A DNA stretch of 64,000 nucleotides from Methanomicrobia archaeon. GTDB lineage: Archaea; Halobacteriota; Bog-38; Methanoflorentales; Methanoflorentaceae. The stretch is from contig JACWML010000010.1 in assembly GCA_015661395.1 (NCBI GenBank), positions 2,499 through 66,498 on the forward strand. The letters are read 5' to 3'. Positions 1 to 47,898 of the stretch are shown piece after piece. Position 1 is the first letter of the stretch, and the number at the start of each line of letters is the position of its first letter. The notes below the pieces were generated by a model that searched no databases, was not told where the DNA came from, and was given only the letters and a program-made list of their open reading frames with translations. Made by a program: the position numbers and the translations under genes.

Positions 1-468
1 TATAAAATCGCCAAGGAAAAGATCGATATCGCGGAAATGGTCGAAGGCGTGATTGAAGTCTATTCAGCGGCGTTTGCTTTGAAGCATACGCCAGAAATCG
101 CGTTAACGAGCAGAAGTTTGATGGGAGTCACGGTTCCCGAAGTATCATTTACCGCGATTAGCCATAGCATAGATGAGCGCGGGTACGGCATAATAGGGAC
201 GTCATCGGCGATTGACGAAGCTGCAGCCGCATACGAGGAGCTGTTGGACAAGATTATACGTGCGGCTGAAGTCGAAACCGCAGTCAAGCGACTGCTTATG
301 GAAATTGAAAGGATTAAGCGTCGCGTAAACGCGCTTGAGTTTCGGGTTATCCCGGACTTAAAAGAGGCCGAGGCGTTCATCATGTTCAGGCTTGAAGAGA
401 TGGAACGCGAAAATATTTTCAGGCTTAAGAAAATCAAGAAAAAAGCGGCGAGTTCTGAAGCCGCGTGA
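1..468 (+). CDS. A/V-type ATP synthase subunit D paralog, C-terminal part. The 5' end is cut by the window edge and the frame is open from nt 1.
   Basis: Translation YKIAKEKIDIAEMVEGV...RGYGIIGTSSAIDEAAAAYEELLDKIIRAAEVETAVKRLLMEIERIKRRVNALEFRVIPDLKEAE aligns residue for residue with the AtpD at 1086..1775 ([62 protein letters not shown]), about 40% identity by eye. It is convergent with the main atp operon. Confidence 0.7.
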   Translation, partial: YKIAKEKIDIAEMVEGVIEVYSAAFALKHTPEIALTSRSLMGVTVPEVSFTAISHSIDERGYGIIGTSSAIDEAAAAYEELLDKIIRAAEVETAVKRLLMEIERIKRRVNALEFRVIPDLKEAEAFIMFRLEEMERENIFRLKKIKKKAASSEAA

Positions 469-696
469 CACAGATCTTTTCGTCGTAACCAACGTATCTG
501 TGGCGGTCGCCTTTCTCTGAGACACCGCTGTGGGATATGTGGCCGACACACTGCGCATAACCACCGATCAAAGGAAAAAATGGGTCATGCTCTGTTCGCG
601 CGAACCGCCGCGGTGCTAGGTTCGATAGGCAGCTCTTAAGAATTGATTTCCAAAAAAGATATCTAAACGTAGCTAGAATACGATTAGGGTAGTGTT

Positions 697-1026
697 ATGC
701 CTGAAGCCCATGACGAGGAAGTTGGAAGACGGCTATTTCAAATACACAAGGAAAAAGCCGTTGAAGTTGCACTCGAAAAAATACGGCGAAAAATGCCGTC
801 TGAGTGGAAGTCATTCACTTCAACAGACATTGACGTGCTCAAGCACATCCTAGGTGAGGCGTGGGTCTGCATCAAGCGGAGCGATTGGGAGGGCATCTCT
901 TTCGCAAAGTTGACCCAGAAAGATTTACAGGTAATCATAGAAATCGCAAATCAAGTGAGTAGTAAGGAAAAACCGGAAAAAATAGCGGTTGATGAGGTTT
1001 GCTCTGCGATAATAACTAAGGAATAA
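697..1026 (+). CDS. hypothetical small protein (109 aa) between the two convergent atpD genes
   Basis: Clean ATG ORF, helical K/E-rich composition, no recognisable motif. Confidence 0.35.
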   Translation: MPEAHDEEVGRRLFQIHKEKAVEVALEKIRRKMPSEWKSFTSTDIDVLKHILGEAWVCIKRSDWEGISFAKLTQKDLQVIIEIANQVSSKEKPEKIAVDEVCSAIITKE

Positions 1027-1085
1027 CCCTTCTTACCGGTCCCGAGAAGGCGTAACCCCGTCGTTTTTTTGCCAGTCGACGCAGG

Positions 1086-1775
1086 CTAGACGATCGGACT
1101 TACGCCGCGCCCATAAGAAGCAGCCGGCTGCTTTTTCTTTGTAGCCTTCCGTCTTCGTTCGAGGATCTTTTTTACCTTCTTCAGCCGGTACAAATCCTCC
1201 CTCTCCCGCTCTTCAATGGATATCTTGATGTATTTGGCTTGGCTTTTTAGCTCAGGTATGAGTACTTGTTCGAGGGCGTTTACGCGCCTTCTGTTCATTT
1301 GAATCTCGTCTCCGAGCCTGCGAAGAGATGTTTCAGTTTCTGCCAGCCCGATGATCAGATCTAGCTCCGCTTCATACCGCTCTGCCGTTTCGTCAATCCG
1401 GCCGCTCGTCCCTATCATACTGTAACCCCGTTCGAGGACGCTTTTTGTGACCGTTTTTCGCTCAACGAGAGGAACGGGAACCCCCATTATGTTTTTTCCC
1501 CGAATCTCAAGGGTCAGGGATCGTTTCGTTGCAAAAGAAGCGGATTTCAGAGCTGTAAGATCGTCGACGGCTTCGGCGACGCACAGCGAGCGCTGCGCGG
1601 CGACTGCTGCGGTCTCCAGTTCTTCTCGCGATTTGGAAACCGAGACCATAATGTGAAAAAACTCCTGAATGAGGGCGTCCATTTTTTCGCGCAAGAGGTC
1701 TCGTCCTTGCTCCGCTAGCTTTATTTGAGCCCTCTTCTTGATGAGTTCCATTCTGGTCGGATTAACTTGTTCCAC
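1086..1775 (-). CDS. atpD: A-type ATP synthase subunit D
   Basis: 229 aa. Coiled-coil D-subunit signature, last gene of the atpHIKECFABD order, overlaps the atpB stop. Confidence 0.9.
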
Positions 1776-3174
1776 GTGATTTCCCCTTGTAGACCGGGTG
1801 GTATTTTTGAATGTAATCCAACTTGATTCGCTTGAGCTCTTCTTCGGGAAGCATTGAGAAGAGATCCCAAGCTATCGCGAAGGTGGTTTCGATATTTCGG
1901 TCTTCATCTCCTTGTGAGATGAATTTCCGCTCAAATTCGTCTGCGAACTCCAGATATTTCTTATCCAATTCAGTCAACGCTTCCTCCCCCACAATCGCTA
2001 CCAGTCGTCTCAAATCTCTGCCGTAGGCGTACGAAGCGTAGAGCTGATCTGCTACGTTCCGGTGATCTTCCCTGGTTTTTTCGGCTCCAATCCCTAGGTT
2101 CATCAGTCGAGACAAGCACGGGAGCGCGTCGATGGGAGGATCAACTCCTCTCCGGTACAGGTCTCTGCTCAACACGATTTGCCCTTCGGTAATATAGCCT
2201 GTCAAATCCGGCACAGGGTGGGTAATATCATCATCGGGCATAGTTAGGATCGGAATTTGGGTAATAGATCCGCTTTTTCCTTTAATCCGTCCTGCGCGTT
2301 CATAGATTGACGCGAGGTCCGTATACATGTATCCTGGGTAGCCTCGGCGGCCCGGAACCTCCTCGCGCGCGGTGGAGATCTCTCTCAAAGCCTCGCAGTA
2401 ATTCGTCATGTCAGTGAGAATAACTAGCACGTGCAGGTTGTGGGTATAAGCGAGGTATTCTGCAACGGACAAAGCGCACCGAGGTGTTGCGACGCGCTCA
2501 ATAGTCGGGTCGTCTGCCAAATTCATGAAGAATACCACGCGCTCGAGCGCCCCTGTCCGTTCGAAATCCGTCATGAAGAATGACGCATCTTTGTAAGTAA
2601 TGCCCATTGCAGCGAAAATGACCGCAAAGTTCTCTCCCTCGCCTAGCACTTTCGCCTGGCGCGCGATTTGAGCGGCTAACCTGTTTGCCGGCAAGCCGGA
2701 ACCAGAGAATATCGGCAGCTTTTGTCCACGAACTAGGGTGTTTAAGCCATCAATGGCGGACATTCCCGTTTGAATAAAGTCCGCCGGTTTGTCCCGTGCG
2801 TACGGATTTATTGGGGTCCCAGCGATATCCACGCTGTCCTCAGAAATGATGGCAGGGCCCCCATCTCTTGGGTTGCCAACGCCGTCGAAAATCCTTCCAA
2901 GCATGTCAAGAGAGACATCTATTTTCGGCGGTTCCCCTGTAAATCTGACCCGTGTTTCAAGGTCGTCTATGCCGCTAGTCCCCTCAAAGACTTGAATAAC
3001 TGCGAGCTCTCGAGAAACGTCTAGAACTTGACCAGTCCGTTCTTCGCCATTGGGAAGTGTAATCTTGGCAGTCTCTCCGAATGACACTCCTTTCACGTTC
3101 TCGGTGAATATCAACGGCCCAGACACATAGTTGATCGTTTTGTACTCTTTGGTGAGCAGACTAGGGGAGGTCAT
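1762..3174 (-). CDS. atpB: A-type ATP synthase subunit B (regulatory/beta-like)
   Basis: 470 aa. Conserved B-subunit blocks ([37 protein letters not shown]). Position in the operon. Confidence 0.95.
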
Positions 3175-4910
3175 TGTGCGACCTCCAGAGATGCGACACT
3201 TGTATCTATTTTGTCCAGGAGGCCTTTGATGGTGGCCACATCTTCTTGTTCCTTCATGCGCGCGATATCGGTTTTGACTGGCAAGTCAAGCAGTTGCTGG
3301 AGCGAAGCCCCTTTGCTCAGCGCATCGGTTATTGCATCGTGGAAGGTAAGGATTGCTTTCAACATCCAGTACTGCTTCTCAAGGGGGCAGAAAGAGTCGA
3401 CCTCGTCAAACGCGCTTTGTTGTAAGAAGTCCTCACGCACCATTCTCGTTACCTCTAAAATCGCCTTCTCGCTCTCTGGCAAGGCATCAGGGCCCACAAG
3501 TTGAACGATCTCCTGCAATTCGACCTCCTTTTGGAGAAGAAACATCGTTTTGTCTCGGAGCTCTCTCCAGTCGCGCGCGATGTTCTCTGCAAACCAGTCT
3601 TGGACGCTTTCTATGTAGAGACTATAGCTGTTGATCCAATTGACGGCCGGAAAATGTCTTCTGTACGCAAGGCTGGTATCCAAGGCCCAGAACGCGCCGG
3701 CTATCCGCAACGTGTTTTGTGTTATCGGTTCTGAGAAATCGCCTCCTGGTGGCGACACTGCCCCGACGACCGTGATAGATCCAGCTCGTCCATCAGAGCC
3801 CAAACAAACAACCCCGCCGGCACGTTCGTAAAAGGCGGCCAATCGTGTCGCGAGATAGGCGGGATATCCCTCCTCGCCAGGCATCTCTTCAAGCCGGCCT
3901 GAGACCTCCCTAAGCGCTTCTCCCCATCGTGAGGTCGAGTCTGCCATTAAAGCGACGTCATATCCCATGTCGCGGTAATATTCAGCCATTGTAATCCCTG
4001 TATAAATCGAGGCCTCCCTCGCTGCGACGGGCATGTTTGAGGTGTTCGCGATCATGATGGTTCTTTCGATCAAGGGTTGTTGGGTGCGAGGATCAACGAG
4101 CTCCGGAAACTCGGTAAGTACGTCAGTCATCTCGTTGCCTCGCTCCCCACAGCCGATGTACACTACAATCTGAGCATCTGCCCATTTGGCGAGCGTTTGT
4201 TCTGACACCGTCTTTCCGGTGCCGAATCCACCAGGAATCATGGCGGTGCCGCCTTTAGTCACGGGAAATATGCAATCAAAAATGCGTTGTCCCGTGAGCA
4301 AGGGTAACGTGGGGTCCAGCTTCTTGGCGTACGGCCTCCCGATTCGCACCGGCCATTTTTGCATCAGCGTTATGTTTGTATCGTTGTCTAAGGTACACAC
4401 CGTGTCTTCTACGGTGAATTCTCCGCTTTCTATTTTGGTTACCGTCCCAGAGACGTGAGGCGGAACCATAATCTTGTGTTCAATGTGGTACTCGTATACG
4501 CTGCCAACGACGTCTCCCGATTCGAGTGCATCACCTTTGTTCACTGAAGCGGTGAACTCCCACTTTCGGTCTCTGTCCACGCCAGGCACCGTGATACCTC
4601 GCGAAATGAAATCGCCGCTTTTTTCCATTAGTATCGGCAGAGGCCTCTGAATCCCGTCATATATGGACGAAATTATTCCGGGACCCAGCTCGACGCTCAG
4701 CGGACTCCCGGTATTCACCACCGTCTCTCCAACTTTTAGTCCTGAGGTGTCCTCATACACTTGAATGACGGCTTCATCTGCGTCTAATCGTATGATCTCG
4801 CCGTTAAGCTGCTCGTCACCGACTCGGACGACGTCGTACAATTTGGACCCTCTCATGTCGAGAGCGTAGACGACCGGGCCCGAAATCCGCGCGATGGATC
4901 CCTGCAACAT
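3171..4910 (-). CDS. atpA: A-type ATP synthase catalytic subunit A
   Basis: 579 aa. P-loop [27 protein letters not shown] block, no intein. Confidence 0.95.
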
Positions 4911-4913
4911 GTC

Positions 4914-5234
4914 CTATCGCCTCACCACGATGTTGTACCCAATCGCCCTGCGCAGCATCCGTTCGATGTAGTCGGTGCGATCGATCTGTCTTGTTCTCGA
5001 AGGTATCGGAATGATTATTGGTCTGTGCAGCTTTTCGATTTTTTCCATGAGCTTATCGTCCAATGAAGCCATAAAATCCTCGTTCACCGCGACAATGCCG
5101 GTGTCATCCTTAAATAACAAAGGGGGGATTATGCTCATAGCCTCCGCTAAGGTAGCCACTTCGAGAACCTCGACTCCCGCCAGCCGAAAACCCGGTGCCG
5201 TTTCTGGGTCGGTTACGACTACAAATTTATACAA
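4914..5234 (-). CDS. atpF: A-type ATP synthase subunit F
   Basis: 106 aa. Size and position between atpC and atpA. Confidence 0.8.
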   Translation of the reverse strand: MYKFVVVTDPETAPGFRLAGVEVLEVATLAEAMSIIPPLLFKDDTGIVAVNEDFMASLDDKLMEKIEKLHRPIIIPIPSRTRQIDRTDYIERMLRRAIGYNIVVRR

Positions 5235-6285
5235 AGACCAGTTCCTCCATCACTTCCTTTTCTGGCACGTACTCGGACTTGCACATCGCTATGATCCGGA
5301 TGTTGGTGATCTCGTTGAGCTTGGCCCACAAATAACCAATGACCAAGGCAAGACTTAGCGGATCGCCAGAGAACAAACTCAGGGCTTTTTGTAAGAGAAA
5401 CTTATCGAGCTCTTTTTCAAATGGGGATATCTTTTCTGCGGTGATGTACTGGTCCGGAAGCTGGGCGAGGAAGGCGTAAGAAGTGCCCGCCAATTGTTTG
5501 GTAACGCCGTCCATCGTTCGAGCTTTGCTTAAAGCCGAGAGCTTATCGACGTTTAACTCTTTTCCCCCGGAAATGAAGTAGTACTGGGGGTCCTCAAGTT
5601 CAACCTTGTCGCGAATGATCCGCAAAACGTTTTTTATGTTGGTCACGTCTATTTCCGTCCGCACTATCCCCCGAATGATCCCTTCATCGTAAGAATCACC
5701 AGCGACGGCGTCTAGAGCGTGGTTATAGTAAAACTTGTCGAGAGCATACTCCAACACAACGAGATCTCGCGTTTCGCTGAATTCCTTAAAATGTTGCGTT
5801 AACGGCCGTGAATATTCGATCCCCCACGTCGCAAGTAAGTCAATAACTGCTTTGACATCTGGTTGCTTAATCATCTCGGTGAGCGTCGCATCGCTAAGCG
5901 CTCCGGCAGGTGCAAGGCTCTCTGCGATCTCTTCAGGCACCTCTTGGATATTTTTCCCTCTCAAGATCGTCTTTATGTTTTGGATGTCCCATTTGTTCAG
6001 GAATATGTTAATAAGCGTTTCAGCGTCTTCGCCTTTCACAAAACTTAATATCAATCGAAAGGTCTTGCTGAGATTCCGCCGCAGCGCGTCTTCGACGCAC
6101 GCGAGACCGATATATTTGACACTCGCATCTTCTAGGTCTTGTCGGTACGGCGTGTTTTCTAACTCGTCGACAAAGGAGTTGATGTCCATTTTGGCCCCTA
6201 AGGCCTCGAGTTCTTTCCGCTCAAGGAGACGGCTTTTCATGCCCCTTATGCGCGCACCGATGTACTCGTAGTCCACCTTAGTCAC
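5227..6285 (-). CDS. atpC: A-type ATP synthase subunit C
   Basis: 352 aa helical protein in the canonical operon position. Confidence 0.85.
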   Translation of the reverse strand: MTKVDYEYIGARIRGMKSRLLERKELEALGAKMDINSFVDELENTPYRQDLEDASVKYIGLACVEDALRRNLSKTFRLILSFVKGEDAETLINIFLNKWDIQNIKTILRGKNIQEVPEEIAESLAPAGALSDATLTEMIKQPDVKAVIDLLATWGIEYSRPLTQHFKEFSETRDLVVLEYALDKFYYNHALDAVAGDSYDEGIIRGIVRTEIDVTNIKNVLRIIRDKVELEDPQYYFISGGKELNVDKLSALSKARTMDGVTKQLAGTSYAFLAQLPDQYITAEKISPFEKELDKFLLQKALSLFSGDPLSLALVIGYLWAKLNEITNIRIIAMCKSEYVPEKEVMEELVFV

Positions 6286-6952
6286 CGAATAGCGTGGAAA
6301 AGATCTCTCGTTTCAGGAGTTCTTTGGCATTGTTCAGTCTTGATTCAATCGTATTGGTTACGACCACCTTTCCGTCTTTGGTGCTGACGGCTAAACCTCC
6401 TGCGCTGGTCAAATCACCGACGATCTCGGAGTTCCGGCCTAGTTCATCTAACACCTGCCTGCATAGAGTTTCGTCCCGCGTATCGATATGAAGGCTTACC
6501 TTCTCTCCTTCGAGTTCGCGAACCGCTTCTTGGAGCATCTTCTTGAAATCTTCTTTGTAACTGGGGTTATCTCTAAAACTGTCTAAACTTTTTTTTGCGT
6601 CGAAAAACGCTCGATGTATGACTGCGTCCTTCTCTTTTATGATCCGCATTTTATTTTCGGCCTTGGCGTTGTAAATCAGTTTGTTTCGCTCTATCTCAGC
6701 CGATTTTTGTGCGTTCTCGCAGTGTGAGGCCTTAATCGCCTCAGCCTTTGCTTCTGCGCTTCTTTTTATTTCTGCGGCTTCTTGATGCGCCTTTTGTATC
6801 ATCTCTGTGATACCCTTTTCAGCGCTTACCCCCATCGACGCAATCAAATTTTCGTATGTCATTCGCCCCAACAGCCTTTTTTTCGGCTCTCCTTTGATGA
6901 GCAGTTTTTTTTGCGCGCTAGCGACTAGATTCCGATTGGTATTCTGAAACAA
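6278..6952 (-). CDS. atpE: A-type ATP synthase subunit E
   Basis: Charged coiled-coil N-terminus (AEIKRSAEAKAEAIKA) and globular C-terminus. The true start is probably an internal Met (MTYENLIASMGVS...). Confidence 0.8.
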   Translation of the reverse strand: MFQNTNRNLVASAQKKLLIKGEPKKRLLGRMTYENLIASMGVSAEKGITEMIQKAHQEAAEIKRSAEAKAEAIKASHCENAQKSAEIERNKLIYNAKAENKMRIIKEKDAVIHRAFFDAKKSLDSFRDNPSYKEDFKKMLQEAVRELEGEKVSLHIDTRDETLCRQVLDELGRNSEIVGDLTSAGGLAVSTKDGKVVVTNTIESRLNNAKELLKREIFSTLFGD

Positions 6953-7013
6953 CAGGAGATTTCATTGTAAACCCAGCAGTGTGCAGCGCCACCATTGAAA
7001 GGCCTAAGCGTCG

Positions 7014-7238
7014 TCACATCGTAGGCAGAACGAAAAGGATAATCGCAGCGACAACGAAGCCTAAAATGACTAAAGTTTCTGGAAGTGCCACAAACACGAG
7101 CGCTAAGCCGAATAATTCTGGTTTTTCTGCAATCACTCCTGCTCCTGCTGCACCGATTCTTGCCTGAGCTATCCCAGTTCCGAGTGCACCCAATCCAAAA
7201 GCTATTCCCGCACCAATCGCTATCGACCAATCGAGCAT
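7014..7238 (-). CDS. atpK: A-type ATP synthase proteolipid subunit K (c subunit, single hairpin)
   Basis: 74 aa with two TM helices, a Gly-rich helix 1, and the conserved carboxylate in helix 2 (ALPETLVILG). Confidence 0.85.
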   Translation of the reverse strand: MLDWSIAIGAGIAFGLGALGTGIAQARIGAAGAGVIAEKPELFGLALVFVALPETLVILGFVVAAIILFVLPTM

Positions 7239-7469
7239 TTTTCCAACTCCTATGGTTTTTTTGTCAGCACCGCGTCTTACGGTAACATCGTGATCCCACG
7301 CGGATTTGCGACTTGGATCCCAATAATATTCTACTCGGTGGCGCGCTTGCTTGTCGCATATCTGCGTTCATGTCCTCCACCTTCGCAGAGAGGTTTGATG
7401 ACCTTTTTTTGCCCCCGCTCTACAGACGGCTTCGACGTCGTGCGCTGCATAAAAGCTACCTCCGGACTC

Positions 7470-9392
7470 TCACTTTGCCGTCCCCCGCTTGAAAGGATCG
7501 TACGATCTGCCCCCGCCCTCATAAAACTTTGAATAGAATTCTACGATATGTAGCCTGAGTGCTTGAATCGAGGGGCTAAACATACACAGGACGACATTTA
7601 ATCCGTGAAGCAACACCGCTACCAAAAGACCTACCAATACGATTCCCATTGAGCTTCCTAGCTCATTGGCTACAAGCGCGAGTACTACGGAAGCCATCCC
7701 TATTGCCATGAGTCTCGCGTACGAGAGGACGTTTGTAAACGTACTCATGACTTCTATTGCTCCGGCAATTCCGCCTCCATACATGACTAGCGGGAGTCCA
7801 ATGACGAGTAGAACTATGCCGGGCGCTACGAGTATAGAGGGAACCACTGCAACTATCGCGAGCAGAATCACTATGATGCTCGCCAAGGTGAGGATCATGC
7901 CAACCCTGGTACATACAAGCTTTTGATTGCTGCGTCTGCGCGCGTTCACCACCCCTATGCCGAGGCCAAAGAATACGTGAAATACCCCGATGGCGACCGT
8001 GAAAATGATCAGCGGCACGATAATTTTAATCCTATCTAATGTCACCCCATCTATCGTTACGGGCTGTATCCAGCCCATCATTTGCCCGAGATTTCCGAAG
8101 AACTCGCCATAGAGATAGCCAAAGAACATTGTGGGAATTGAGCAGATGATCAGGATGTTCATCAGTTGCTTGATTGTGGGACTGCGTTGTCCGTAGAACC
8201 ATCTCACCACCAGCGCAAACACGAGTATACAGATGCCGTACCCAATGTCGCCTACCATGAGGCCAAAGAAGAACGGGAAAAACAGCGCGAGCAGCAGTGT
8301 CGGCTCAATCTCGCCGGACCGTGGTGTACCTATCAAATTGCTGAGAGTCTCAAAGGGCTTGACAATTCGCGGATTGTCGTAACACGACGGCGCGTTGTAG
8401 TTCTCCTCTCGACTTACGCTAAGGTCGTTTACGATGACTCTGCCTTCAAATGCCTTTTTTAATGCATTTTTAGTGTTTGCGAGCTGCTTTTGTGGCACCC
8501 AACCAATCATAACGAAGGTGTAGTCTGTCTGCCCGAACTTGGTGAAAACACTGAGCTCTTCATTCCTGTCCTCAAGCACTTCTTTGAGCACGCTGAGCTT
8601 CGGGTACCAGTTCCTCGACAGTTCTACTAACTCCTCGTTGACGGCGCTCATTTCGACCGTTGATTTCTGCCGTTGTTCGTCGACTAATGTCAGAACCTGG
8701 TCAAATGGCTTATCCAGATATTCGGGCGGGAGTCGAACTTCATTCACATTTTGGGACCAAATAAATGAGTGGACCTGGTCAGAATACCTTTTATTAAACA
8801 CCGTCACCGCAGCCGTCGTCGCCTCGTCGACATCCGCTGACATGAGCTCAAATTGGTTGTGCGTGATCTCGACTAGCGCTGAGCGAACAATCTCGAGGAC
8901 ATCCTTAAATTCCCTTTGGATGAGAATTACGGTGACTTCAAACCCCTCTAAAATAGGAAGTTGAGCCTCCAAAGGCTGCAGCTTCTCAATAACTTCTTCG
9001 TAATGAGTGAGATTCGTAAGCGTAAATTCAATATCACTTTTTCGCGTAGCTAGCTCTTTGGTTACCGTCTCGAGCTCGCCGATAACCTGGTTTGCCTCGT
9101 CGACGAGCTCATCATCATTTTTCCACCGAAGTCCCTCATAGATTTGGGTCTTTAGCGCCTCGTTCACGGGCATCGTGGGGAGCAGGTGAAACATCCCGCT
9201 GACTTTGACTAACGCACCTGCGATGTCGATTTTTGGGCTCGCCTGCACGCGTCGCAGCATCGTATCTCCTGGGGCGATAGTCGTCGACGCGTCTTCTAAA
9301 TGAACCGTCCCTAGGTTGTACAGAAAATCAACCGTGCTGTGCAAGTCATCTTTTGGTCCAATGACCTGGATCTTGGTCATTTTCTGCAGCAT
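7470..9392 (-). CDS. atpI: A-type ATP synthase subunit I (a subunit)
   Basis: 640 aa. Soluble N-terminal half followed by a multi-TM C-terminal half. Position upstream of atpK. Confidence 0.85.
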   Translation of the reverse strand: MLQKMTKIQVIGPKDDLHSTVDFLYNLGTVHLEDASTTIAPGDTMLRRVQASPKIDIAGALVKVSGMFHLLPTMPVNEALKTQIYEGLRWKNDDELVDEANQVIGELETVTKELATRKSDIEFTLTNLTHYEEVIEKLQPLEAQLPILEGFEVTVILIQREFKDVLEIVRSALVEITHNQFELMSADVDEATTAAVTVFNKRYSDQVHSFIWSQNVNEVRLPPEYLDKPFDQVLTLVDEQRQKSTVEMSAVNEELVELSRNWYPKLSVLKEVLEDRNEELSVFTKFGQTDYTFVMIGWVPQKQLANTKNALKKAFEGRVIVNDLSVSREENYNAPSCYDNPRIVKPFETLSNLIGTPRSGEIEPTLLLALFFPFFFGLMVGDIGYGICILVFALVVRWFYGQRSPTIKQLMNILIICSIPTMFFGYLYGEFFGNLGQMMGWIQPVTIDGVTLDRIKIIVPLIIFTVAIGVFHVFFGLGIGVVNARRRSNQKLVCTRVGMILTLASIIVILLAIVAVVPSILVAPGIVLLVIGLPLVMYGGGIAGAIEVMSTFTNVLSYARLMAIGMASVVLALVANELGSSMGIVLVGLLVAVLLHGLNVVLCMFSPSIQALRLHIVEFYSKFYEGGGRSYDPFKRGTAK

Positions 9393-9398
9393 ATCGAT

Positions 9399-9722
9399 CT
9401 ACTCCGGAGTCACCGCTTTCACTATTTTTTCTGCGGCCTTGGACAAGTTTTCCTCTCCGCTCTGTCTTGTCAGTTCTGCCTCTTCTGTGCCGAGCCGTTT
9501 CAGCTCTTCTACCTCATTAAGGACGCGCGCTAGTCTTTTTTTGGAGTACTCGTCAGCGGCTTGTGTTCCATCAGTTTCCGCCTTTTTCAAAATATCAGCG
9601 GCTTCCCTTTTAGCGTCTGTGATAATCTGCTCGGCGTCCCGCCGCGCCTGGTCCGCTTTTACGCTTAGTTCTACCTCTTTCCTTCGTATCTGCTGCAATA
9701 CCGACGGCTCTTCCTCAGCCAT
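9399..9722 (-). CDS. atpH: A-type ATP synthase subunit H
   Basis: 107 aa, entirely charged coiled-coil (ARRDAEQIITDAKREAADILKKAE). First gene of the operon. Confidence 0.7.
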   Translation of the reverse strand: MAEEEPSVLQQIRRKEVELSVKADQARRDAEQIITDAKREAADILKKAETDGTQAADEYSKKRLARVLNEVEELKRLGTEEAELTRQSGEENLSKAAEKIVKAVTPE

Positions 9723-9939
9723 TTTTTGCTTCCATCGGAGTTTTGATTTTATAGCCCGCGGCGCGCTTTTAGCTGTGCAGCTATATCATGATCTGGAACG
9801 TGTCGTTCGAGCTTTTTTTGATCGCTATATTTCGTGTTTTCAGCTGCGCGCAAAACGCGCTCTCGACACCTGTCTACTGCTCCTTGTTTCAGTTTATCGA
9901 CTAGCTGTATAACACCGTTATCCACATTGTGTCACCAAG

Positions 9940-9995
9940 GTGTTACATTTTTATCAATATTAATTATGTAAATATAAGTTGGGGGACGATATATG
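9940..9995. promoter_or_regulatory. AT-rich block with TATA-like elements in the 600-bp divergent intergenic region between atpH and the CBS gene
   Basis: tttttatcaatattaattatgtaaatataagtt stands out against the ~58% GC background. A separate TATA-like ttttatg at ~10300 is about 30 bp upstream of the CBS gene start. Confidence 0.3.
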
Positions 9996-10339
9996 TTACG
10001 GTGCAATATTGCTAAGAAAAAGCACCCTTTTTTTGCTTCTCTTAGACAATGAACGAAAAAAGAACCTTACGGGCCATTTTTTGTAATACTCTGCGAGGCG
10101 TATTCTCATACGAGAAAAGCGCTCGATACGGCTGGGGATGGACATGGTTGGTTGTAGCCAGTGTCTGCGCCACAATGCCAGAATTCCGCGGTTTTGAAGG
10201 TTAGCGCGGAGGCATTTGCAAACCTGCACGCGTGAAATCTAATGAAGGCGGTAAGTCTGCGCAACTCCTCTTTTGCAATCCACTCTCAGCACTGTCCAGC
10301 GTGCCCGAGCTTTTATGTACGGAGTTAGCATAATGACTC

Positions 10340-10765
10340 GTGGTGAGGATCGTGAAGCGACTCAAGGTTAGGGACGTGATCGAGCACAGACCGCAGACGA
10401 TTGATCCGAGTGCATCACTCCTTGAGGCGGCAAGGCGCATGGTAGAAGACGCAACAGACGCTTTCATTGTGTCGCCGCTTGAAAAGGATGAGCCATTCGG
10501 CATCATTACCCAGAGAGATATCGTCGATTTGTTCGCCGACGAGGTCGATATTGGCAAAGTGACGGTGGGAGAGATGGCCAGCAAGCCACTCTTCATCGTA
10601 TCTCCAGGAATGCCCATCCTGTACGCTGCTAAGATGTTTCGAAAAGCCGGGGTGAATCATCTGGCCGTCTTCAACGGACAAGAAATCCTCGGGATTATCT
10701 CGTGTGATGACGTCTTGGGAAGCCTTCCCAATTTGATGGAGCAGATCTACAGCGAGTTCGACTAG
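10340..10765 (+). CDS. CBS domain pair protein
   Basis: Two CBS repeats (VRDVIEHRPQTIDPSASLLEAARRM...DAFIV, then VGEMASKPLFIVSPGMPILYAAKMFRKAGVNHLAVFNGQEILGIISCDD). Confidence 0.75.
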   Translation: MVRIVKRLKVRDVIEHRPQTIDPSASLLEAARRMVEDATDAFIVSPLEKDEPFGIITQRDIVDLFADEVDIGKVTVGEMASKPLFIVSPGMPILYAAKMFRKAGVNHLAVFNGQEILGIISCDDVLGSLPNLMEQIYSEFD

Positions 10766-10782
10766 CCGTTTAGCCGACGGTG

Positions 10783-10802
10783 CCCGCACCGCGAGTGCGG
10801 TG
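10783..10802. terminator. GC hairpin downstream of the CBS gene (gcaccgc-gagt-gcggtgc), followed further on by an oligo-T run at ~10880
   Basis: Perfect 7-bp inverted repeat seen directly, 20 nt after the stop codon. Confidence 0.3.
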
Positions 10803-10982
10803 CCTCTGCGCAGGGGGTTCGGCGAGGCGAAGTGCTTTAGGAATGCTTTTAGATTAAGATCCAATCTCGGTTTGACTCGCTTTTTTTCCAAAACTATTAA
10901 GTAGCTATCGTGTAATCATATTACGAAATAGCTTGATGTATAAGCATCTTTGGAGTCTATCTGTCGTATTGAGGCGATCATA

Positions 10983-11285
10983 ATGGCTGAACAACCCCCT
11001 AAGAAACCTGTATTTGAGGACTACGGTATCGATCCTGCGATCTCTGAGATTCAGAATTTCAAGGCTGAAATCGTGTTCGAGCTGAAGAAAGCTGAGGTGC
11101 CATTTCCGATAACGAGTCGCGAACAGCTGATGACCGTGTTTCCCAAGGGCTGGAGCATGCAGTGCTCGATGAAAGGTCAAAAAATAGAGCTTCACGAGTA
11201 CGTTTCCAAAATGAAGGCCGACGAGTTTCCTATCAGGACTGCCGGCGACGTTGCGGACAAGCTTGCGTCGTTTTGCACGATTTAG
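10983..11285 (+). CDS. hypothetical protein (~100 aa)
   Basis: ORF with an ATG at 10983 (MAEQPPKK...). The track's 10950 start is a TTG. No recognisable motif. Confidence 0.4.
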   Translation: MAEQPPKKPVFEDYGIDPAISEIQNFKAEIVFELKKAEVPFPITSREQLMTVFPKGWSMQCSMKGQKIELHEYVSKMKADEFPIRTAGDVADKLASFCTI

Positions 11286-11444
11286 CTCAACGTCGCATCG
11301 GTTTTTGCAGCAACTGACTGTTCCCCGTTCAAAGAAGCCCACCGTTCTGAGCTTTTTTGGACACCTACTTTTTTTAAATATTCTTATATAATTGAGTGTG
11401 CATAAAAGACATGTAAAGCCATAGGTGTTAGCGCTGGTGGGCCT

Positions 11445-11825
11445 ATGCATGCGACCATAATGCCGGAAGAATGGCAGTTTGAAAAAGAAGTCGTTTGTTT
11501 TAACTGCCATACAAGAGCAACGCAAGTTGTGCGGATTAAAGACAGACAGGGCAGTGTTATATGCTCGGCGTGTGGCGCGCAGCGTCACTATATCATACGA
11601 AGCGTGATTTATGGGACGGATACGCCGCCGATGGCCCCTGTGGGGATGAAATATGATGCGTGGGACTTCGCGAAGACGAGCGGCTGTCTGAATTGTAAAG
11701 AACACGCAAGGCACAGCGTACATCTCGACGAGTACAAGATGAACGTGATCTGCGACGAATGCGGTTTTTCGCGAGTGTTGAAGCTCGATTATCTTGTCTT
11801 CCCACATGTCCTCTCGAACGAATAA
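11445..11825 (+). CDS. double zinc-ribbon protein
   Basis: Four CxxC pairs (CFNCH...CSACG, then CLNCK...CDECG). A TATA-like tttttttaaatattcttatataatt lies ~50 bp upstream. Confidence 0.5.
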   Translation: MHATIMPEEWQFEKEVVCFNCHTRATQVVRIKDRQGSVICSACGAQRHYIIRSVIYGTDTPPMAPVGMKYDAWDFAKTSGCLNCKEHARHSVHLDEYKMNVICDECGFSRVLKLDYLVFPHVLSNE

Positions 11826-11837
11826 GCTCCGCTGAAG

Positions 11838-12341
11838 ATGAGCACGCGGTTGTACGTCTTTCACGCAGGGCAGTGTAATCCGAAGAAGTGTACCGCCAAA
11901 AAACTTGCTAAATTTCATCTCGTAACTCTTTTCCCGACGCCACGACCCTTGTGGGGCTCTCATACGGTACTCCTTGATCCATCCGCACCCGCTCCGTTAT
12001 GCCGCGCGGACGTTGTGACGACGCTCGTTGCGGTTGACTGCTCTTGGAAACAGCGTGAGCGCGTGTTCGAGTCCTTCCGTGCGCGGACAAGGCGACGACT
12101 TCCGTATCTTTTGGCAGCGAATCCGGTGAACTATGGGCGGCCGTACGAGCTCACAACGGCAGAAGCACTGGCTGCTGCGCTCTACGTCCTTGGGGAGTCA
12201 CAACGCGCAAGAGAACTCTTAAACAAGTTCAAATGGGGTCCGACGTTTTTAAACTTGAACGCCGCACCCCTCAATGAATACGCCGGCGCGAACACCGTCG
12301 GCGACGTGCTTGCAAGTGAACGCGCCTATACAGAAGGCTAA
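11838..12341 (+). CDS. tsr3: 16S rRNA aminocarboxypropyltransferase Tsr3 (DUF367)
   Basis: N-terminal LYVFHAGQCNPKKCTAKKL and central LAANPVNYGRPYELTTAEALAAALYVLG match the Tsr3/DUF367 family. Confidence 0.75.
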   Translation: MSTRLYVFHAGQCNPKKCTAKKLAKFHLVTLFPTPRPLWGSHTVLLDPSAPAPLCRADVVTTLVAVDCSWKQRERVFESFRARTRRRLPYLLAANPVNYGRPYELTTAEALAAALYVLGESQRARELLNKFKWGPTFLNLNAAPLNEYAGANTVGDVLASERAYTEG

Positions 12342-29565: not shown

Positions 29566-31010
29566 TCACAGGTGGAGCCCTTGAGCCACGCGTGCTCCGA
29601 GTTCGCTGTCTGCCTCGATAAAGTGATCCACCATGCGCTCCTGCATTGGTTTGTCGGCCTTCTCGAGTGAGTCGACAATGTTGTCGATCAGATGGTCTTG
29701 ATCGATCGTGCTGAGCGATCGGTACCTGTCGCCCGCTTGTGCGAAATCGTTCTTGAGGCTAATCTTTCGGCGAGTGACGTCCCCCTCGATCCGCTCCATG
29801 GACGTCGGGCCGGCAGGCGCTGCCTCCGGCGTGCCACCAGCGAGAGTGTTCGGTTCGTAGTTTACCGCTCCACGGAACGATCCTGATTGCATTGCGCCGT
29901 CGCGCTGGTCGTTCTCAACCGGTGCGTGCGGACTATTGATGGCGAGCTGTAGATAATTGGGCCCAAGGCGATGTCGCTGGGTGTCCGCGTACGAGAAGAC
30001 ACGGCCTTGCAGCAGCTTGTCAGCAGACGGTTCGATACCCGGAACGATGGCGCCGGGCGAGAACGCGGCCTGTTCTGTTTCTGCGAAGTAGTTCTCGGGG
30101 TTCCGATTCAGAACTATCTTGCCTACCGACATCAGCGGGAAGGTATCCTCGGGCCACGTCTTGGTTGCGTCAAGAGGGTCGAAGTCCTGTTTCAACTCGT
30201 CGACGATATCCATCAGCTGCACCTTGAGTTCGTACTCCGCCTCGCCTCCGTTTGCGATCGTATCCCAGAGGTCCCGAGTGAGGTAATCAGGGTCGGTCCC
30301 TGCCAAAGCTGTAGCTTTATGACGGTCAAGTGATTGGACGCCCAGCTTCGGCTTCCAGTGATACTTCACATAGCGCGCTTCCCCCGCTGCGTTGATCCAC
30401 TTGTAGGTGTTGACGCCAAATCCTTCCATCGTCCGGTAGCTCTTAGGCGTCCCGCGGTCCGAAAACAGCCAGGCGATCATGTGTGTCGACTCGGGCGTCA
30501 GGGAGATGAAATCCCAAAAGCGACTGTTTGCGGAGGAGCTCGTCGGGATGTTCGAGTCTGGCGCGGGCTTGAACGAGTGCACCATATCAGGAAACTTGAG
30601 GGCATCGCGGATGAAGAAAACAGGCAGGTTGTTTCCCACTAGGTCGTAATTTCCTTCTTCGGTGTAGAACTTGACTGCAAACCCTCGCGGGTCGTGCGCT
30701 GTGTCCGCAGATCCCCGAGCGCCGACGACCGTTGAAAAACGAACGAAGACGGGCGTCTGCGTTTCCGGATCCTGGAGGAACTTCGCACAGGTATACGGGG
30801 CCATGCTTTGGTAGACTTGGAAGTAGCCGTGGGCCCCGCCCCTTTCGCGTGTACGACGCGCTCCGGGATGCGCTCGCGGTCGAAGTGCGCGAGCTTTTCG
30901 ATCAGATGCACGTCTTGCAGCAAGACTGGTCCACGCTCACCGACGGTCAGTGAACTTTGGTTATCGGTGACGGGAACGCCTTGATTCGTGGTGAGGTGTT
31001 TGTCGCTCAT
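29566..31010 (-). pseudogene. katA: monofunctional haem catalase (KatA/KatE clade), split by a 1-nt indel in a G/C homopolymer at ~30831-30842
   Basis: N-terminal frame (30639..31010) reads [59 protein letters not shown] then goes out of frame. C-terminal frame (29566..30804) reads ...[64 protein letters not shown]... Adding one C to gggcccc restores [13 protein letters not shown], the canonical catalase motif. Confidence 0.8.
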
Positions 31011-45312: not shown

Positions 45313-47898
45313 TCACCCGGGAACAGGTTTTCGACGCGAGGGTTTGCGCTTGTTGGCAGGCATTCGAACGATCTCCATTCCCACCTCGGCGAGCAGGCGT
45401 GGTATGTTACGCGCGGCGTCTCGGTCGTACTCCTTCATGTGTTCGGGAAGCTCTGAATAAGGTATGATCCACGGGCTTAGCTTCTTCTCTTCGTCCTTTA
45501 TCGGATCCAATTTCCACCCGTCAAGGAGGCGTTCCACGTTCCAGCGGCCGTGCTCAAGCTCCGCCATGATCTCCACCTCGTCGGGAGTGAATTGCATCCG
45601 CGTCACGGTATCGCTGCGCGCCTTCCGGACGGTATAGCCGACGGCGTTCAATTTATGGGCGATATCGTCTGCCTGCGCCCTGTTGGATTGTTTCAAGTCG
45701 TCGCGGAGCTTGTCCCATTTGGCGCGCCGGGGTTCCTGGCTTTGGGTGCGCATGAGGAGCTTGCGATAGTTGTCATGGATCTCCTGCGCCATGCGCTCGC
45801 GCACCGGTGTGGGGAGCGTTTGCTCGGTTGAACTGATGAACGCCTGTGCCGAGATTGGATCCTTTGGCAGCTGAATGAGCTTCTCGGATTTGCTCCATTC
45901 GTCGTCTTGGATCAACCGCGCCGCTTCGTGTCCGCTTCCTGCGACAATGGCGACGCTCGCGCGCAACGCGAGCGCGAGGCGGTATTCTATGCCGGCGATG
46001 CTTTGTCCATCGATGCCAAGAAGCTTGACGCTCTTGGGCGAAACGTCTGATCCGATGAGATCAACCCAATACTGCAGGGTTTCCGAAGGGTTGAAGCGCA
46101 GGGGTTCCGAAGCTTTGAAGCCCTCGCTATCGGTGCGCCGGATATCGCAGTATCGCTGATCGACCGCGGCGTCAGGAAGCACGCGCGGCACGAATCCTAT
46201 GGTCTGCAGCTCGGGGTAGCGCTCTTGCACGTCGCCGACAATGCGGCTGATGCCGCTGCCCGTGCCGCCCGAGATGAGCGTCCCTGTGAACCCCTTGAAG
46301 GCCTCGAGCATGAGCCCTCGATAGCTCGCTGCGTATCCCTCATCGGGAGAATCGTAGCCGCCTGCGACGATGGCTACCGGCTCCTTTAAGCGTCGGCTAT
46401 TGGGCGTCGTCAGCTTTTTCAGGTCGGCGCGTGCCTCTGCGGCGTCGAATCGTCCGGCCCATCCGATGAGCAAGATGGTGCGCGCCCATTCGTACCCGCC
46501 CAACGCCTCGTGCACGGGCGCGAGCTTCACTAGTGAGTGGTAGGCATTTTCGATCGGCCACTCGGCGGTGCTCATCTGGATCGCCTTCGCATAGGCGATG
46601 AGGCTTTCGTGGCTCTCACCGAGGAGCAGGTGGAGCATCCCGAGGGCGTAGTATGCCCACGGGATGTTGATGCCGACGGCGGTCTGACCCCAACAACGTT
46701 GTATCGCCATGCGCATCAATGGTCGCACCACGTCGATGATCGACGTCGTACCACGGTGACTGATCTCGAGCTCGAGATAGTTGATGAGCGCGTAGGGATC
46801 TGACGGATCGAGCTCGAACGCCTTACGGTAGAGCTCGCGCGCCCGCGGTTCGTTGCACTCGCGATACGTGTCGGCCAGGCGCACGTACGTGTCGGCATTC
46901 TCGGCTTTCGCGAGCGACTCGTCAAGGTAGCCCTGTCCCTTCACGTAGTCCTCGCTCTCGGGCGTCCCACTGTTCTGCTTGCAGAGGGCGACACCCAGAT
47001 CTTTGAGAAGGGGGGCGTAGCCCGTGTCAGCGTACGCGCTGAAGGTCTCGATAGCCTGCTCCCAGTCGCCCAGCGTCATCGCCAGTCGGCCGATGCTGTG
47101 CGCGTGCTGGACGTTGTGCGGGTCGTGCTCGAGGATCATCTTGAGGGTGCGTATCTCATCTCGCACCTGCGTCTCGTTCATGTAGGCGCTGTAGTTGGCG
47201 GCATACGCCGTAAGCCGGTTCTCGATCGTCGCGAAGGATTGATCGGCGTCTTCGAGCAGCGCCGCTATTCGCGCGAGCTCGCGCTGCCACTGTCTGGGGA
47301 AGGTGAAAGCGCCCTTGTAGGCCTTGTCGTGACTGAAGTCGGCCCACGCGTGTTCGAGCAGCGTGCGCACCTGTATTTCCGCTTTCAACTCGGCGACCGT
47401 CTCGGGCACATCGATCGAAACCCCGCCGACAGTAATCGAACCGGGACGATGTAGGCTGACGATGTAGTGGACCGAGCGGTACCCGAACTCGGCCGCCTTG
47501 AGGCGCTGGTCAATATTGAAGCTGTTGTCCCAATCGATATCGAAAACGCGATCGGAATCACTCGGCTCAGCCTGCTTCTCGATGTACGTGCAGATCGCCG
47601 TCACCTCTGTCTGGGTATGGGTGATGACGCGTCCGCCGCAGAGGTCGGTGAAGTCATTGACGGGATCGCGCGTCTCATCCTGTTTTCGAATGATCTTCTC
47701 AGCGAAACTCGAAACTGATTTCGGCCGCGTCTGAACGATCGCGAGGGGCGCATACCGCTTAGCGAGTGCATCGAGGATGTTGTAGAGTACCTGCGCGAGC
47801 TCTTTATAACGTGGTTCCACGAGCTCGAAGTTCTCGATCTGTCCCTCATACCACGTGCGGAACTGCTCTTGATCAGCCTCACTCATCGTGCTCGGCAC
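45313..47898 (-). CDS. 861-aa multidomain protein: N-terminal RelA/SpoT-type nucleotidyltransferase (alarmone-synthetase-like), TPR repeats, a SLOG/LOG-like Rossmann domain, and two C-terminal RyR repeats
   Basis: RelA/SpoT blocks RPKSVSSFAEKIIRK, TDLCGGRVI, EFGYRSVHYIV and EIQVRTLLEHAWADFSHDKAYKG, including the catalytic Asp and Glu positions. TPR-like helices at ~250-400 aa. G-rich Rossmann loops VAIVAGGYDSPDEGY and ISGGTGSGIS. C-terminal AELEHGRWNVERLLDGWKLDPIKDEEKKLSPWIIPYSELPEHMKEYDRDAARNIPRLL matches the RyR domain consensus, preceded by a degenerate RyR half (EIHDNYRKLL...KWDKLRDDLKQSNRAQADDIAHKLNAVGY). Confidence 0.85.
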   Translation of the reverse strand: MPSTMSEADQEQFRTWYEGQIENFELVEPRYKELAQVLYNILDALAKRYAPLAIVQTRPKSVSSFAEKIIRKQDETRDPVNDFTDLCGGRVITHTQTEVTAICTYIEKQAEPSDSDRVFDIDWDNSFNIDQRLKAAEFGYRSVHYIVSLHRPGSITVGGVSIDVPETVAELKAEIQVRTLLEHAWADFSHDKAYKGAFTFPRQWQRELARIAALLEDADQSFATIENRLTAYAANYSAYMNETQVRDEIRTLKMILEHDPHNVQHAHSIGRLAMTLGDWEQAIETFSAYADTGYAPLLKDLGVALCKQNSGTPESEDYVKGQGYLDESLAKAENADTYVRLADTYRECNEPRARELYRKAFELDPSDPYALINYLELEISHRGTTSIIDVVRPLMRMAIQRCWGQTAVGINIPWAYYALGMLHLLLGESHESLIAYAKAIQMSTAEWPIENAYHSLVKLAPVHEALGGYEWARTILLIGWAGRFDAAEARADLKKLTTPNSRRLKEPVAIVAGGYDSPDEGYAASYRGLMLEAFKGFTGTLISGGTGSGISRIVGDVQERYPELQTIGFVPRVLPDAAVDQRYCDIRRTDSEGFKASEPLRFNPSETLQYWVDLIGSDVSPKSVKLLGIDGQSIAGIEYRLALALRASVAIVAGSGHEAARLIQDDEWSKSEKLIQLPKDPISAQAFISSTEQTLPTPVRERMAQEIHDNYRKLLMRTQSQEPRRAKWDKLRDDLKQSNRAQADDIAHKLNAVGYTVRKARSDTVTRMQFTPDEVEIMAELEHGRWNVERLLDGWKLDPIKDEEKKLSPWIIPYSELPEHMKEYDRDAARNIPRLLAEVGMEIVRMPANKRKPSRRKPVPG

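Follow-up and report, generated by a model that had tools for sequence, protein, structure and literature searches.

The window, the whole 64,000-nucleotide stretch of DNA analysed here, opens inside a gene. Frame 1 of the plus strand is open from the first base to a TGA stop at 466–468, and the translation of 1–468 (155 codons plus stop) matches the Pfam family ATP-synt_D (PF01813) over profile positions 49–196 of 196 (E = 1e-38), so that ~ 48–58 N-terminal residues of this gene, atpD2, lie outside the window. The sequence-only reading had placed this ORF at roughly 40% identity to the AtpD of an intact minus-strand ATPase operon in the window, and BLASTP agreed. The in-window part is 45% identical to atpD1 over 144 gapless residues (E = 6e-39), and full-length D2, taken from contigs identical to the window, is 41% identical to D1 over 198 aa (E = 6e-49). 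Full-length D2 is 213 aa long and scores above the cut-off of the NCBIfam equivalog NF001542 (305 vs 261 bits).

The intact minus-strand operon (operon 1) was also found as claimed, with nine genes at 1086–9722 that read D-B-A-F-C-E-K-I-H along the window. Its first gene, atpH1 (9399–9722; PF16999), encodes peripheral stalk subunit H and is followed by atpI1 (7470–9392; PF01496), the a subunit that forms the stator and ion channel, and atpK1 (7014–7238), a c subunit. Subunit E of the peripheral stalk is encoded by atpE1 (6278–6862; PF01991), for which we used the start of the public gene call (194 aa), while the longest ORF reaches 6952. Next come atpC1 (5227–6285; PF01992), the d-like rotor socket, and atpF1 (4914–5234; PF01990), subunit F. 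The catalytic subunit A (atpA1, 3171–4910) and the non-catalytic subunit B (atpB1, 1762–3174) precede atpD1 (1086–1775), the central stalk subunit D, which matches PF01813 with E = 2e-51 and scores 224 bits against NF001545, where the cut-off is 226.

Public contigs that are 100% identical to window positions 1–11000, recovered by a look-up with the protein of the small ORF described below, carry a complete second operon upstream (operon 2; plus strand, 1478–9772 of contig L003; genes assigned by Pfam families and translations). It runs H2-I2-K2-E2-C2-F2-A2-B2-D2, with its bulk beyond the window and atpD2 as its last gene, and both operons thus have the same nine subunits in the order H-I-K-E-C-F-A-B-D. 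The expectation that a second operon ends at the window start, convergent with the first, was therefore correct; the proposed search upstream for atpB and atpA paralogs recovered B2 and A2, and the alternative of an isolated atpD fragment fails.

The two D genes lie tail to tail across a gap of 617 bp, which holds a conserved ORF of 109 aa (ORF109; 697–1026, plus strand), convergent with atpD1. Its predicted product is all-helical, 74–100% identical across the clade, with a dN/dS of ~ 0.15. No Pfam or NCBIfam model matched it, an exhaustive search gave a family of 119 representatives, and an AF2 model (pLDDT 81.6, six helices) had no fold match in the PDB. Homologues adjoin A-type ATPase operons in three other records (L090, L091 and L095), and in other genomes the gene travels with Methanomicrobiales-type operons. 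A run of seven T, read from the sequence at 1064–1070 (plus strand) between the stops of ORF109 and atpD1, may be an archaeal oligo-T terminator of plus-strand transcription. Scans of the intergenic region for bacterial-type promoters and terminators and for inverted repeats, which do not model archaeal signals, yielded about as many hits as shuffled sequence does, or none that could be interpreted. Scans of the window for tRNA and Rfam families returned no matches.

The source organism is Ca. Methanoflorens (Bog-38 / Methanoflorentaceae). A relative whose proteins are 89–100% identical to those of the window, MAG SPRUCE 210 (L005), has been assigned to Ca. Methanoflorens crillii (PMC12296737). 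The same convergent pair was observed in L005–L014 and L088/L089; every related species found has it tail to tail, and the junction was seen in ~ 12 species-level genomes. None of the 18 genes is disrupted in the window lineage, and each has a dN/dS of 0.01–0.24, indicating strong purifying selection. The pair is ancestral to this whole methanogen lineage. That the second operon is a decaying relic, or that the junction is a chimeric assembly of two organisms, we consider extremely improbable. Such a history might be suspected from one long-read assembly with a frameshifted A1 (L007), another with a split B1 (L009), and a "chromosome" record, OY969924.1, in which the entire pair occurs twice at ~ 74% nucleotide identity, a doubling which suggests that some records may have been misassembled or misbinned. 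However, the frameshifts are confined to single assemblies, which makes sequencing errors their simplest cause. The identical junction was present in independent ENA, JGI, and NCBI assemblies (four of the four contigs examined), and the sequence collection has the ORF109 protein in 105 of its blocks. Together with the ~ 12 genomes, the intact genes, the low dN/dS, and a base composition that is equal in the two operons (GC/GC3 of 0.502/0.570 in operon 1 and 0.508/0.573 in operon 2), this largely refutes a pseudogene or an assembly artefact.

By every sequence criterion tested, both operons look like ordinary archaeal A-type enzymes, with no sign of a new kind of machine. The best model for both A subunits was the archaeal A-type TIGR01043 (941.1 bits for A1 and 976.9 bits for A2), although only A2 exceeds its equivalog cut-off of 972.15, A1 staying just under it. 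The P-loop of A1, GGFGTGKT, is a signature of the Methanomicrobiales, whose A subunits share this variant, and TIGR01043 may therefore under-represent that clade. A1 lies above the cut-off of the subfamily model NF003220 (894 vs 470 bits), and A, B, I, and D of operon 2 exceed their NCBIfam equivalog cut-offs. Both A subunits contain the ATP-synt_ab_Xtn insert, the P-loop, and GERGNE, and their nearest PDB entry is the A-type subunit A of Pyrococcus horikoshii. The stator motifs are intact in I1 (SYARLMAIG and LRLHIVE) and in I2 (SYSRLLSIG and LRLHYVE), and we take these SYxRL and LRLHxVE motifs to hold the essential Arg of V/A-type a subunits. K1 (74 aa, with PET) and K2 (79 aa, with PES) are both single-hairpin c subunits of ~ 70–80 aa with the ion-binding rotor glutamate intact in helix 2.

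The suggestion that one of the operons might be a V-type or N-ATPase-like system was not borne out. Against the V-type model TIGR01042, A1 and A2 scored 725 and 721 bits, below both the cut-off of 779.9 and their own A-type scores, and neither K is the double hairpin of ~ 150–160 aa found in V-type enzymes. Scores against the N-ATPase models TIGR03305 and TIGR03324 were 107–127 bits, where the cut-offs are ~ 750, with the alternate F1Fo beta model giving only ~ 107–110 bits for both A subunits. The N-ATPase gene order atpDCQRBEFAG is absent, and both operons show the A-type order.

Within the A type, the two operons are old, divergent lineages. Identity between them is 61% for A, 67% for B, 41% for D, and 28% for I. 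The nearest named relatives of A1 are Methanoregula and Methanoculleus (76–78%), and B1 is 86% identical to the B of Methanoregula; those of A2 are Methanosalsum, Methanomethylovorans, and Methanoperedens (72–74%). Neighbour-joining trees were built from limited taxa that did not include Methanocella, Archaeoglobi, or class I methanogens. In the tree of A, operon 1 grouped with Methanomicrobiales at 98% and operon 2 with Methanosarcinales at 91%, and in a concatenated tree of A, B, D, I, and C (2147 columns) the corresponding values were 100% and 96.5%. Operon 2 is sister to the Methanosarcinales enzymes, and operon 1 nests in the Methanomicrobiales beside Methanoregula, with moderate support for this last sister relationship (50% for A, 81% for the concatenation). 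The Methanocellales AtpA was grouped with that of Methanosarcina mazei by Sakai et al. 2011. Operon 2 is the type expected for the lineage (Methanosarcinales/Methanocellales), and the in-window operon 1, which the sequence-only reading had treated as its reference, is the more divergent one.

Operon 2 would then be the vertically inherited enzyme, while operon 1 may have been acquired long ago by lateral transfer, the donor being Methanomicrobiales-like, or may be an old paralogue kept in some lineages only; its base composition would since have fully ameliorated to that of the host. A recent horizontal transfer was rejected, given the equal GC and GC3 and the occurrence of the pair in every relative, down to the deepest found.

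A division of labour by coupling ion was considered, in which one enzyme would be Na+-coupled, drawing on the Na+ gradient of the Mtr methyltransferase, and the other H+-coupled. At ion-site positions 32/65/66/67/70 (I. tartaricus numbering), K1 has Q/E/T/L/L and K2 has E/E/S/I/F (Q...PETLVIL and E...PESIVIF). The two sites therefore differ in Q32/T66 vs E32/S66, and by Mulkidjanian's minimal ligand set (Q/E32, E65, S/T66) Na+ binding is possible for both. K1 is 74% identical to the K of Methanoregula and 67% to a fragment of M. paludicola MCP_2286, and K2 is 65% identical to the K of M. mazei and 58% to M. paludicola MCP_0343. K2 also resembles the c subunit of M. acetivorans and M. nitroreducens, which is said to use both H+ and Na+ in a paper that cites Schlegel 2012. 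In Methanoregula and a Methanoculleus MAG, the partner of a Methanomicrobiales-type operon is an enzyme with the full Na+ motif, which suggests a recurring theme of paired enzymes with different ion preference.

Yet the strict Na+ motif of the Methanothermobacter/Methanocaldococcus type, a helix-1 Gln with P-E-T-Q-x-x-Y, is found in neither K1 nor K2. Both are hydrophobic at 67 and 70, where the Na+-coupled methanogen enzymes (PETQAIY) have a polar residue and a Tyr, and the sites are similar enough in character that no clear functional distinction follows from sequence. Sakai et al. expected the Methanosarcina-like type to use H+, and acid, ion-poor bog water would probably disfavour Na+ coupling. 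On balance, a strict Na+/H+ division seems rather unlikely. Of the earlier suggestion of different ion specificity, what stands is that the ion sites differ. Neither c subunit carries the full Na+ signature, and the operons may or may not differ in their preferred coupling ion or in the number of ions per ATP.

We found that the arrangement is best read as a second complete A1AO operon converging on the intact in-window one, the two probably encoding isoenzymes for different energetic conditions. Each operon would yield a functional rotary ATP synthase with its own rotor (c) and stator (a), and the use of the two as isoenzymes under such conditions is the most likely reading. If Methanocella conradii is a guide, the constitutive enzyme would be the Methanosarcina-like one, and the Methanomicrobiales-like one would be the form induced at low hydrogen, under syntrophic conditions. 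In M. conradii, expression of Atp1 (Mtc_1394-1402) is high and constant, and Atp2 (Mtc_2332-2337) is up by log2 3.0–4.7 (8–26-fold) in syntrophic coculture, the tie between Atp2 and the operon 1 type being made through a single M. paludicola c-subunit fragment, MCP_2286.

Another reading is that one operon runs in reverse as an acid-stress pump, with ATP-driven H+ export for pH homeostasis in acidic peat, resembling the V-type-like ATPase that acidophilic and hadal Thaumarchaeota acquired by horizontal transfer. Ca. Methanoflorens does dominate acidic bogs, and Wang et al. 2019 found that a transferred second ATPase operon correlates with high pressure or low pH and makes E. coli acid-tolerant (PMC6863869). 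Both operons here are A-type rather than V-type-like, however, and group with euryarchaeal A-type enzymes in the trees; the same two c-subunit types occur in the rice-field species Methanocella paludicola, the pair is also present in fen MAGs (L009, fen_29), and induction of the second operon in M. conradii went with syntrophic coculture, where growth was slower too, and not with a change of pH. Both the pump and its likeness to the thaumarchaeal case are therefore improbable. A more specific form of the isoenzyme reading is that Methanoflorens switches by hydrogen supply between two mechanically different A1AO synthases, with a different rotor and stator and a different ion-per-ATP ratio or preference, and that ORF109, hitherto unrecognised, specifically assists or regulates the Methanomicrobiales-type enzyme; we offer this tentatively, as a conjecture that may well prove wrong.

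Ca. Methanoflorens has been reported as the most abundant methanogen of northern bogs and thawing permafrost, and its energy conservation limits how little hydrogen can sustain it. That it always carries two complete synthases of different evolutionary type raises the hypothesis that these are isoenzymes for high and low energy supply or for different coupling ions. A literature search found no report of two ATPases in Methanoflorens. The analysis also draws attention to the ORF109 family, small conserved genes that travel with one enzyme type.

The sequence-only reading called two A-type rotary ATPases in one archaeon unusual, which overstated the case. Paired rotary ATPases, often adjacent, recur in class II methanogens (Methanocella, Methanoregula, Methanoculleus, and Methanoflorens), and in Methanocella they had already been seen, though little discussed. 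Methanoflorentaceae has been placed in Methanocellales, and Methanocella, a group of hydrogenotrophic class II methanogens, is the cultured group nearest Methanoflorens. Methanocella paludicola shares both c-subunit types (MCP_0343 resembling K2 and MCP_2286 resembling K1), a likeness judged from published c-subunit fragments. M. conradii likewise has a pair of A-type operons, of which one is constitutive and the other rises in syntrophy; what type the second enzyme is, or where it came from, is not taken up in the papers on Methanocella. By locus tags the two sets lie far apart in Methanocella, whereas those of Methanoflorens lie side by side and converge, separated by a conserved small gene.

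The ahaHIKECFABD operon of Methanosarcina mazei and M. acetivorans has the same gene order as operon 2, whose c subunit shares the Methanosarcina site E...PE(T/S)IVIFGLVVA. The A of operon 2 is nevertheless only 72–74% identical to Methanosarcinales A, and its c subunit has Ser rather than Methanosarcina's Thr after the rotor Glu, as is also reported for Methanoperedens. To our knowledge, the cytochrome-based H+ pumps known from Methanosarcina are absent from the Methanoflorens host. Operon 1 resembles the Methanomicrobiales A1AO of Methanoregula (CP112999) and the Methanoculleus MAG in gene order, GGFGTGKT, and subunit sizes, and the c-subunit site Q...PETLVILGFVVA is common to both. Unlike in Methanomicrobiales, operon 1 sits in a non-Methanomicrobiales host with a Methanosarcina-like enzyme as its partner. 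Methanoregula and the Methanoculleus MAG also have a second rotary ATPase beside the first, in Methanoregula a bacterial-like V-type cluster with a 147-aa K and in the Methanoculleus MAG an enzyme with a three-hairpin c subunit and the Na+ motif.

Hadopelagic Nitrosopumilus, like Methanoflorens, has two complete rotary ATPase operons of different phylogenetic origins, for which horizontal operon transfer has been invoked (PMC6863869), but of its two enzymes the second is V-type-like, with a link to high pressure or low pH, while both are A-type in Methanoflorens. The N-ATPase of M. acetivorans and M. barkeri is likewise a laterally acquired second rotary ATPase in a methanogen; there the extra enzyme is F-type and of bacterial origin, which is not so in Methanoflorens.

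The stretch opens within a reading frame: frame 1 is open from base 1 to a TGA stop at 466-468, and the translation of 1-468 (+) hits the Pfam family ATP-synt_D (E 1e-38), covering positions 49-196 of the 196-position profile. An ungapped alignment with the D protein encoded at 1086-1775 (-) shows 45% identity across 144 residues (E 6e-39), far beyond chance, confirming the two tail-to-tail D-subunit genes proposed by the sequence-only reading. The minus-strand copy belongs to an intact A-type ATPase operon (operon 1; 1086-9722, order D-B-A-F-C-E-K-I-H). The region upstream of the window was reached by an exact-sequence look-up in public assemblies of ORF109, a 109-aa ORF between the two D genes, which is indexed in 105 blocks. 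Of four contigs retrieved, three were 100% identical to window 1-11000, with window position 1 at locus position 9305, and carry a complete operon 2 in the order H2-I2-K2-E2-C2-F2-A2-B2-D2. The predicted second rotary ATPase operon is thus present in full, and the alternative of no ATPase genes upstream fails. Ahead of operon 2 lie a pterin-binding (MtrH-like) gene and, in divergent orientation, a gene for RACo (reductive activator of corrinoid enzymes), outside the window at 1-1353 of the contig L003; this pair hints at a corrinoid methyltransferase system. Identities between the two operons were 61% for A, 67% for B, 44% for K, 41% for D, 29% for C, 28% for I, and ~25% for each of E, F, and H, and the operons are old relatives of each other.

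The exact proteins of the locus are labelled as a "Halobacteriota archaeon" MAG in NCBI. The nearest species-representative genome is MAG SPRUCE 210 (L005; proteins 89-100% identical to the window's), assigned to Ca. Methanoflorens crillii (PMC12296737), and, according to published descriptions, the methanogens of northern peat are dominated by the lineage Bog-38 / Ca. Methanoflorentaceae / Rice Cluster II. Every retrieved close relative whose sequence crosses the junction showed the convergent operon pair (L005-L013, L088, and L089); L014 and L042 are short contigs holding only parts of it. Across all 18 genes of the two ATPases, pairwise dN/dS was 0.01-0.24 and synonymous sites were close to saturation, and GC/GC3 was the same for operon 1 (0.502/0.570) and operon 2 (0.508/0.573). 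The conserved pair, low dN/dS, and equal composition argue that the junction is real and that both operons are long-resident, functional genes. An assembly artefact at the junction was rejected, since relatives carry the same pair, and we consider a relic or artefact as the explanation of the locus extremely improbable.

Several observations on these records stand apart. The 2.74-Mb "chromosome" OY969924.1 carries the operon pair twice (L007, 376-21014, and L011, 1804504-1825142; ~73-75% nucleotide identity over 20 kb), reflecting a genuine, ancient duplication or else the merging of two species during assembly. In the deepest relative (L088/L089), operon-1 proteins were closer to those of the window (A1 90%, D1 90%) than operon-2 proteins (A2 83%, D2 77%, I2 56%), whereas L008 and L011 showed the opposite order, an incongruence suggesting that one operon has been exchanged between members of the clade. 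Among public records (L006, L069; proteins P0050, P0156, P0318), near-identical Methanoflorens-type loci are labelled "Candidatus Bathyarchaeia" or "Candidatus Acidoferrum", and a MAG named "Yoonia sp." contains an MGII-type ATPase contig; such assignments probably stem from mistakes in binning or labelling. Elsewhere in the window, the genome of this strict anaerobe has a catalase gene (29566-30804, -; Pfam E 1e-148, without the first ~65 model positions) and a gene for an 861-aa protein with RelA/SpoT, TPR, and RyR domains (45313-47898, -).

Both A subunits scored best against the archaeal A-type model TIGR01043 (cut-off 972 bits), A2 above the cut-off at 977 and A1 below it at 941. Both were under the V-type model cut-off and reached only ~107-110 bits against the alternate-F1Fo (N-ATPase) beta model. 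Equivalog cut-offs were passed by A, B, I, and D of operon 2, while those of operon 1 fell just or well below (I1 375 vs 670). The nearest PDB entry for A1 and A2 was the Pyrococcus horikoshii A-type subunit A, followed by Thermus, Enterococcus, and eukaryotic V-ATPases. K1 and K2 are both single-hairpin c subunits, and both operons retain their catalytic and stator motifs intact; the P-loop of A1 is the GGFGTGKT variant common to Methanoregula and Methanoculleus, and that of A2 the usual GPFGSGKT. The suggestion that one enzyme might be V-type or N-ATPase-like was not borne out, and such an identity was rejected for either operon on the NCBIfam-model scores, PDB neighbours, and single-hairpin c subunits.

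The two copies fall into distinct lineages. Outside its own clade, A1 is nearest to named Methanomicrobiales (Methanoregula, Methanoculleus; 76-78%), and A2 to Methanosarcinales (Methanosalsum, Methanomethylovorans, Methanoperedens; 72-74%). With B paralogues as the root, a neighbour-joining (NJ) tree of A placed operon 1 within Methanomicrobiales (98%) and operon 2 as sister to Methanosarcinales (91%). The concatenated A+B+D+I+C tree (2147 columns) grouped operon 1 with Methanomicrobiales (100%; with Methanoregula, 81%) and operon 2 with Methanomethylovorans (96.5%). Methanocellales AtpA has been reported to group with Methanosarcina mazei (Sakai et al. 2011). We infer that the enzyme native to this lineage is operon 2 and that operon 1 is an extra, Methanomicrobiales-type enzyme, either anciently acquired or an old paralogue retained; direction and timing remain inferences, because both trees were built by NJ from a limited sample that lacks Methanocella sequences.

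The c subunits were aligned with those published by Sakai et al. At positions 32/65/66/67/70 (Ilyobacter numbering), K1 has Q/E/T/L/L and is closest to Methanoregula K (74%) and Methanocella paludicola MCP_2286 (67%); K2 has E/E/S/I/F and is closest to M. mazei K (65%) and MCP_0343 (58%). Na+-coupled methanogen enzymes have Q/E/T/Q/Y. By the minimal Na+ ligand set of Q/E32, E65, and S/T66 (Mulkidjanian et al.), both could bind Na+; judged by the fuller methanogen motif, neither rotor is dedicated to Na+. K2 belongs to the M. acetivorans/Methanoperedens type of c subunit, described as using H+ and Na+ alike. The suggested difference in ion specificity is therefore not supported; an ion-specific division of labour between the enzymes is possible but doubtful.

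ORF109 (697-1026, +) is 74-100% identical across the clade, with dN/dS ~0.15. It matched no Pfam or NCBIfam family, and its predicted six-helix model (pLDDT 81.6) gave no fold match in the PDB. The family comprises 119 representatives at 50% clustering, and every homologue with informative context adjoins an A-type ATPase operon, mostly of Methanomicrobiales type, usually convergent with atpD and once directly upstream of atpH. In a Methanoculleus MAG, the homologue (L090 13824-14189, -) converges on the D gene of the Methanomicrobiales-type operon. Of those at L091 3046-3390 and L095 8001-8348, one is convergent with atpD on a 69%-GC contig and the other sits immediately 5' of atpH, ahead of a Methanomicrobiales-type operon. 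At L011 10975-13039, four genes (for CBS-domain, MTH865-like, zinc-ribbon, and 164-aa proteins, found in the window beyond atpH1 at 10340-12341) separate atpD2 from ORF109, which still adjoins atpD1, linking it to operon 1 and not operon 2. Any accessory or regulatory role for ORF109 is conjecture.

The locus most likely encodes two working A1AO ATP synthases used as isoenzymes, with similar catalytic heads and strongly differing rotors and stators. In Methanocella conradii, expression of one A-type operon (Mtc_1394-1402) is high and constant, and another, Atp2 (Mtc_2332-2337), shows little expression in monoculture and an 8-26-fold rise in syntrophic coculture. By analogy, we favour a reading in which the Methanosarcina-like operon 2 would be the housekeeping form and the Methanomicrobiales-like operon 1 the one preferred when hydrogen is low or energy is limiting; this depends on M. 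conradii Atp2 being, as presumed, an orthologue of the MCP_2286/K1 type. Beside this housekeeping and low-hydrogen split, an acid-stress pump seems unlikely to us. A literature search found no paper noting two ATPases in Methanoflorens. The locus is of moderate interest: its host carries ecological weight, and peat omics data that already exist allow the hypothesis to be tested.

Two rotary ATPases in one archaeon, which the sequence-only reading had called unusual, are a known situation. The M. paludicola supplement contains two c subunits of exactly the K1 and K2 types; the paper itself discusses one enzyme only (Sakai et al. 2011). Methanoregula CP112999.1 (L086 1-3647) has a bacterial-like V-type cluster (..B-D-I-K) directly upstream of its A-type operon, with a 147-aa K whose sequence reads as an Enterococcus hirae-like Na+ motif. 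In the Methanoculleus MAG (L090 5302-21740; JGI 3300022547 contig, protein assigned to Methanoculleus sp. by NCBI), two A-type operons lie tail to tail, a Methanomicrobiales-type operon convergent with a third type whose 240-aa, three-hairpin c subunit carries the PETQAIY Na+ motif and whose 599-aa A subunit is ~60% identical to A1 and A2 alike. Hadal Nitrosopumilus has A-type and V-type-like operons (PMC6863869), and some Methanosarcina an extra F-type operon. The locus is one of dual A-type ATP synthases, a kind already known in Methanocellales-related methanogens.
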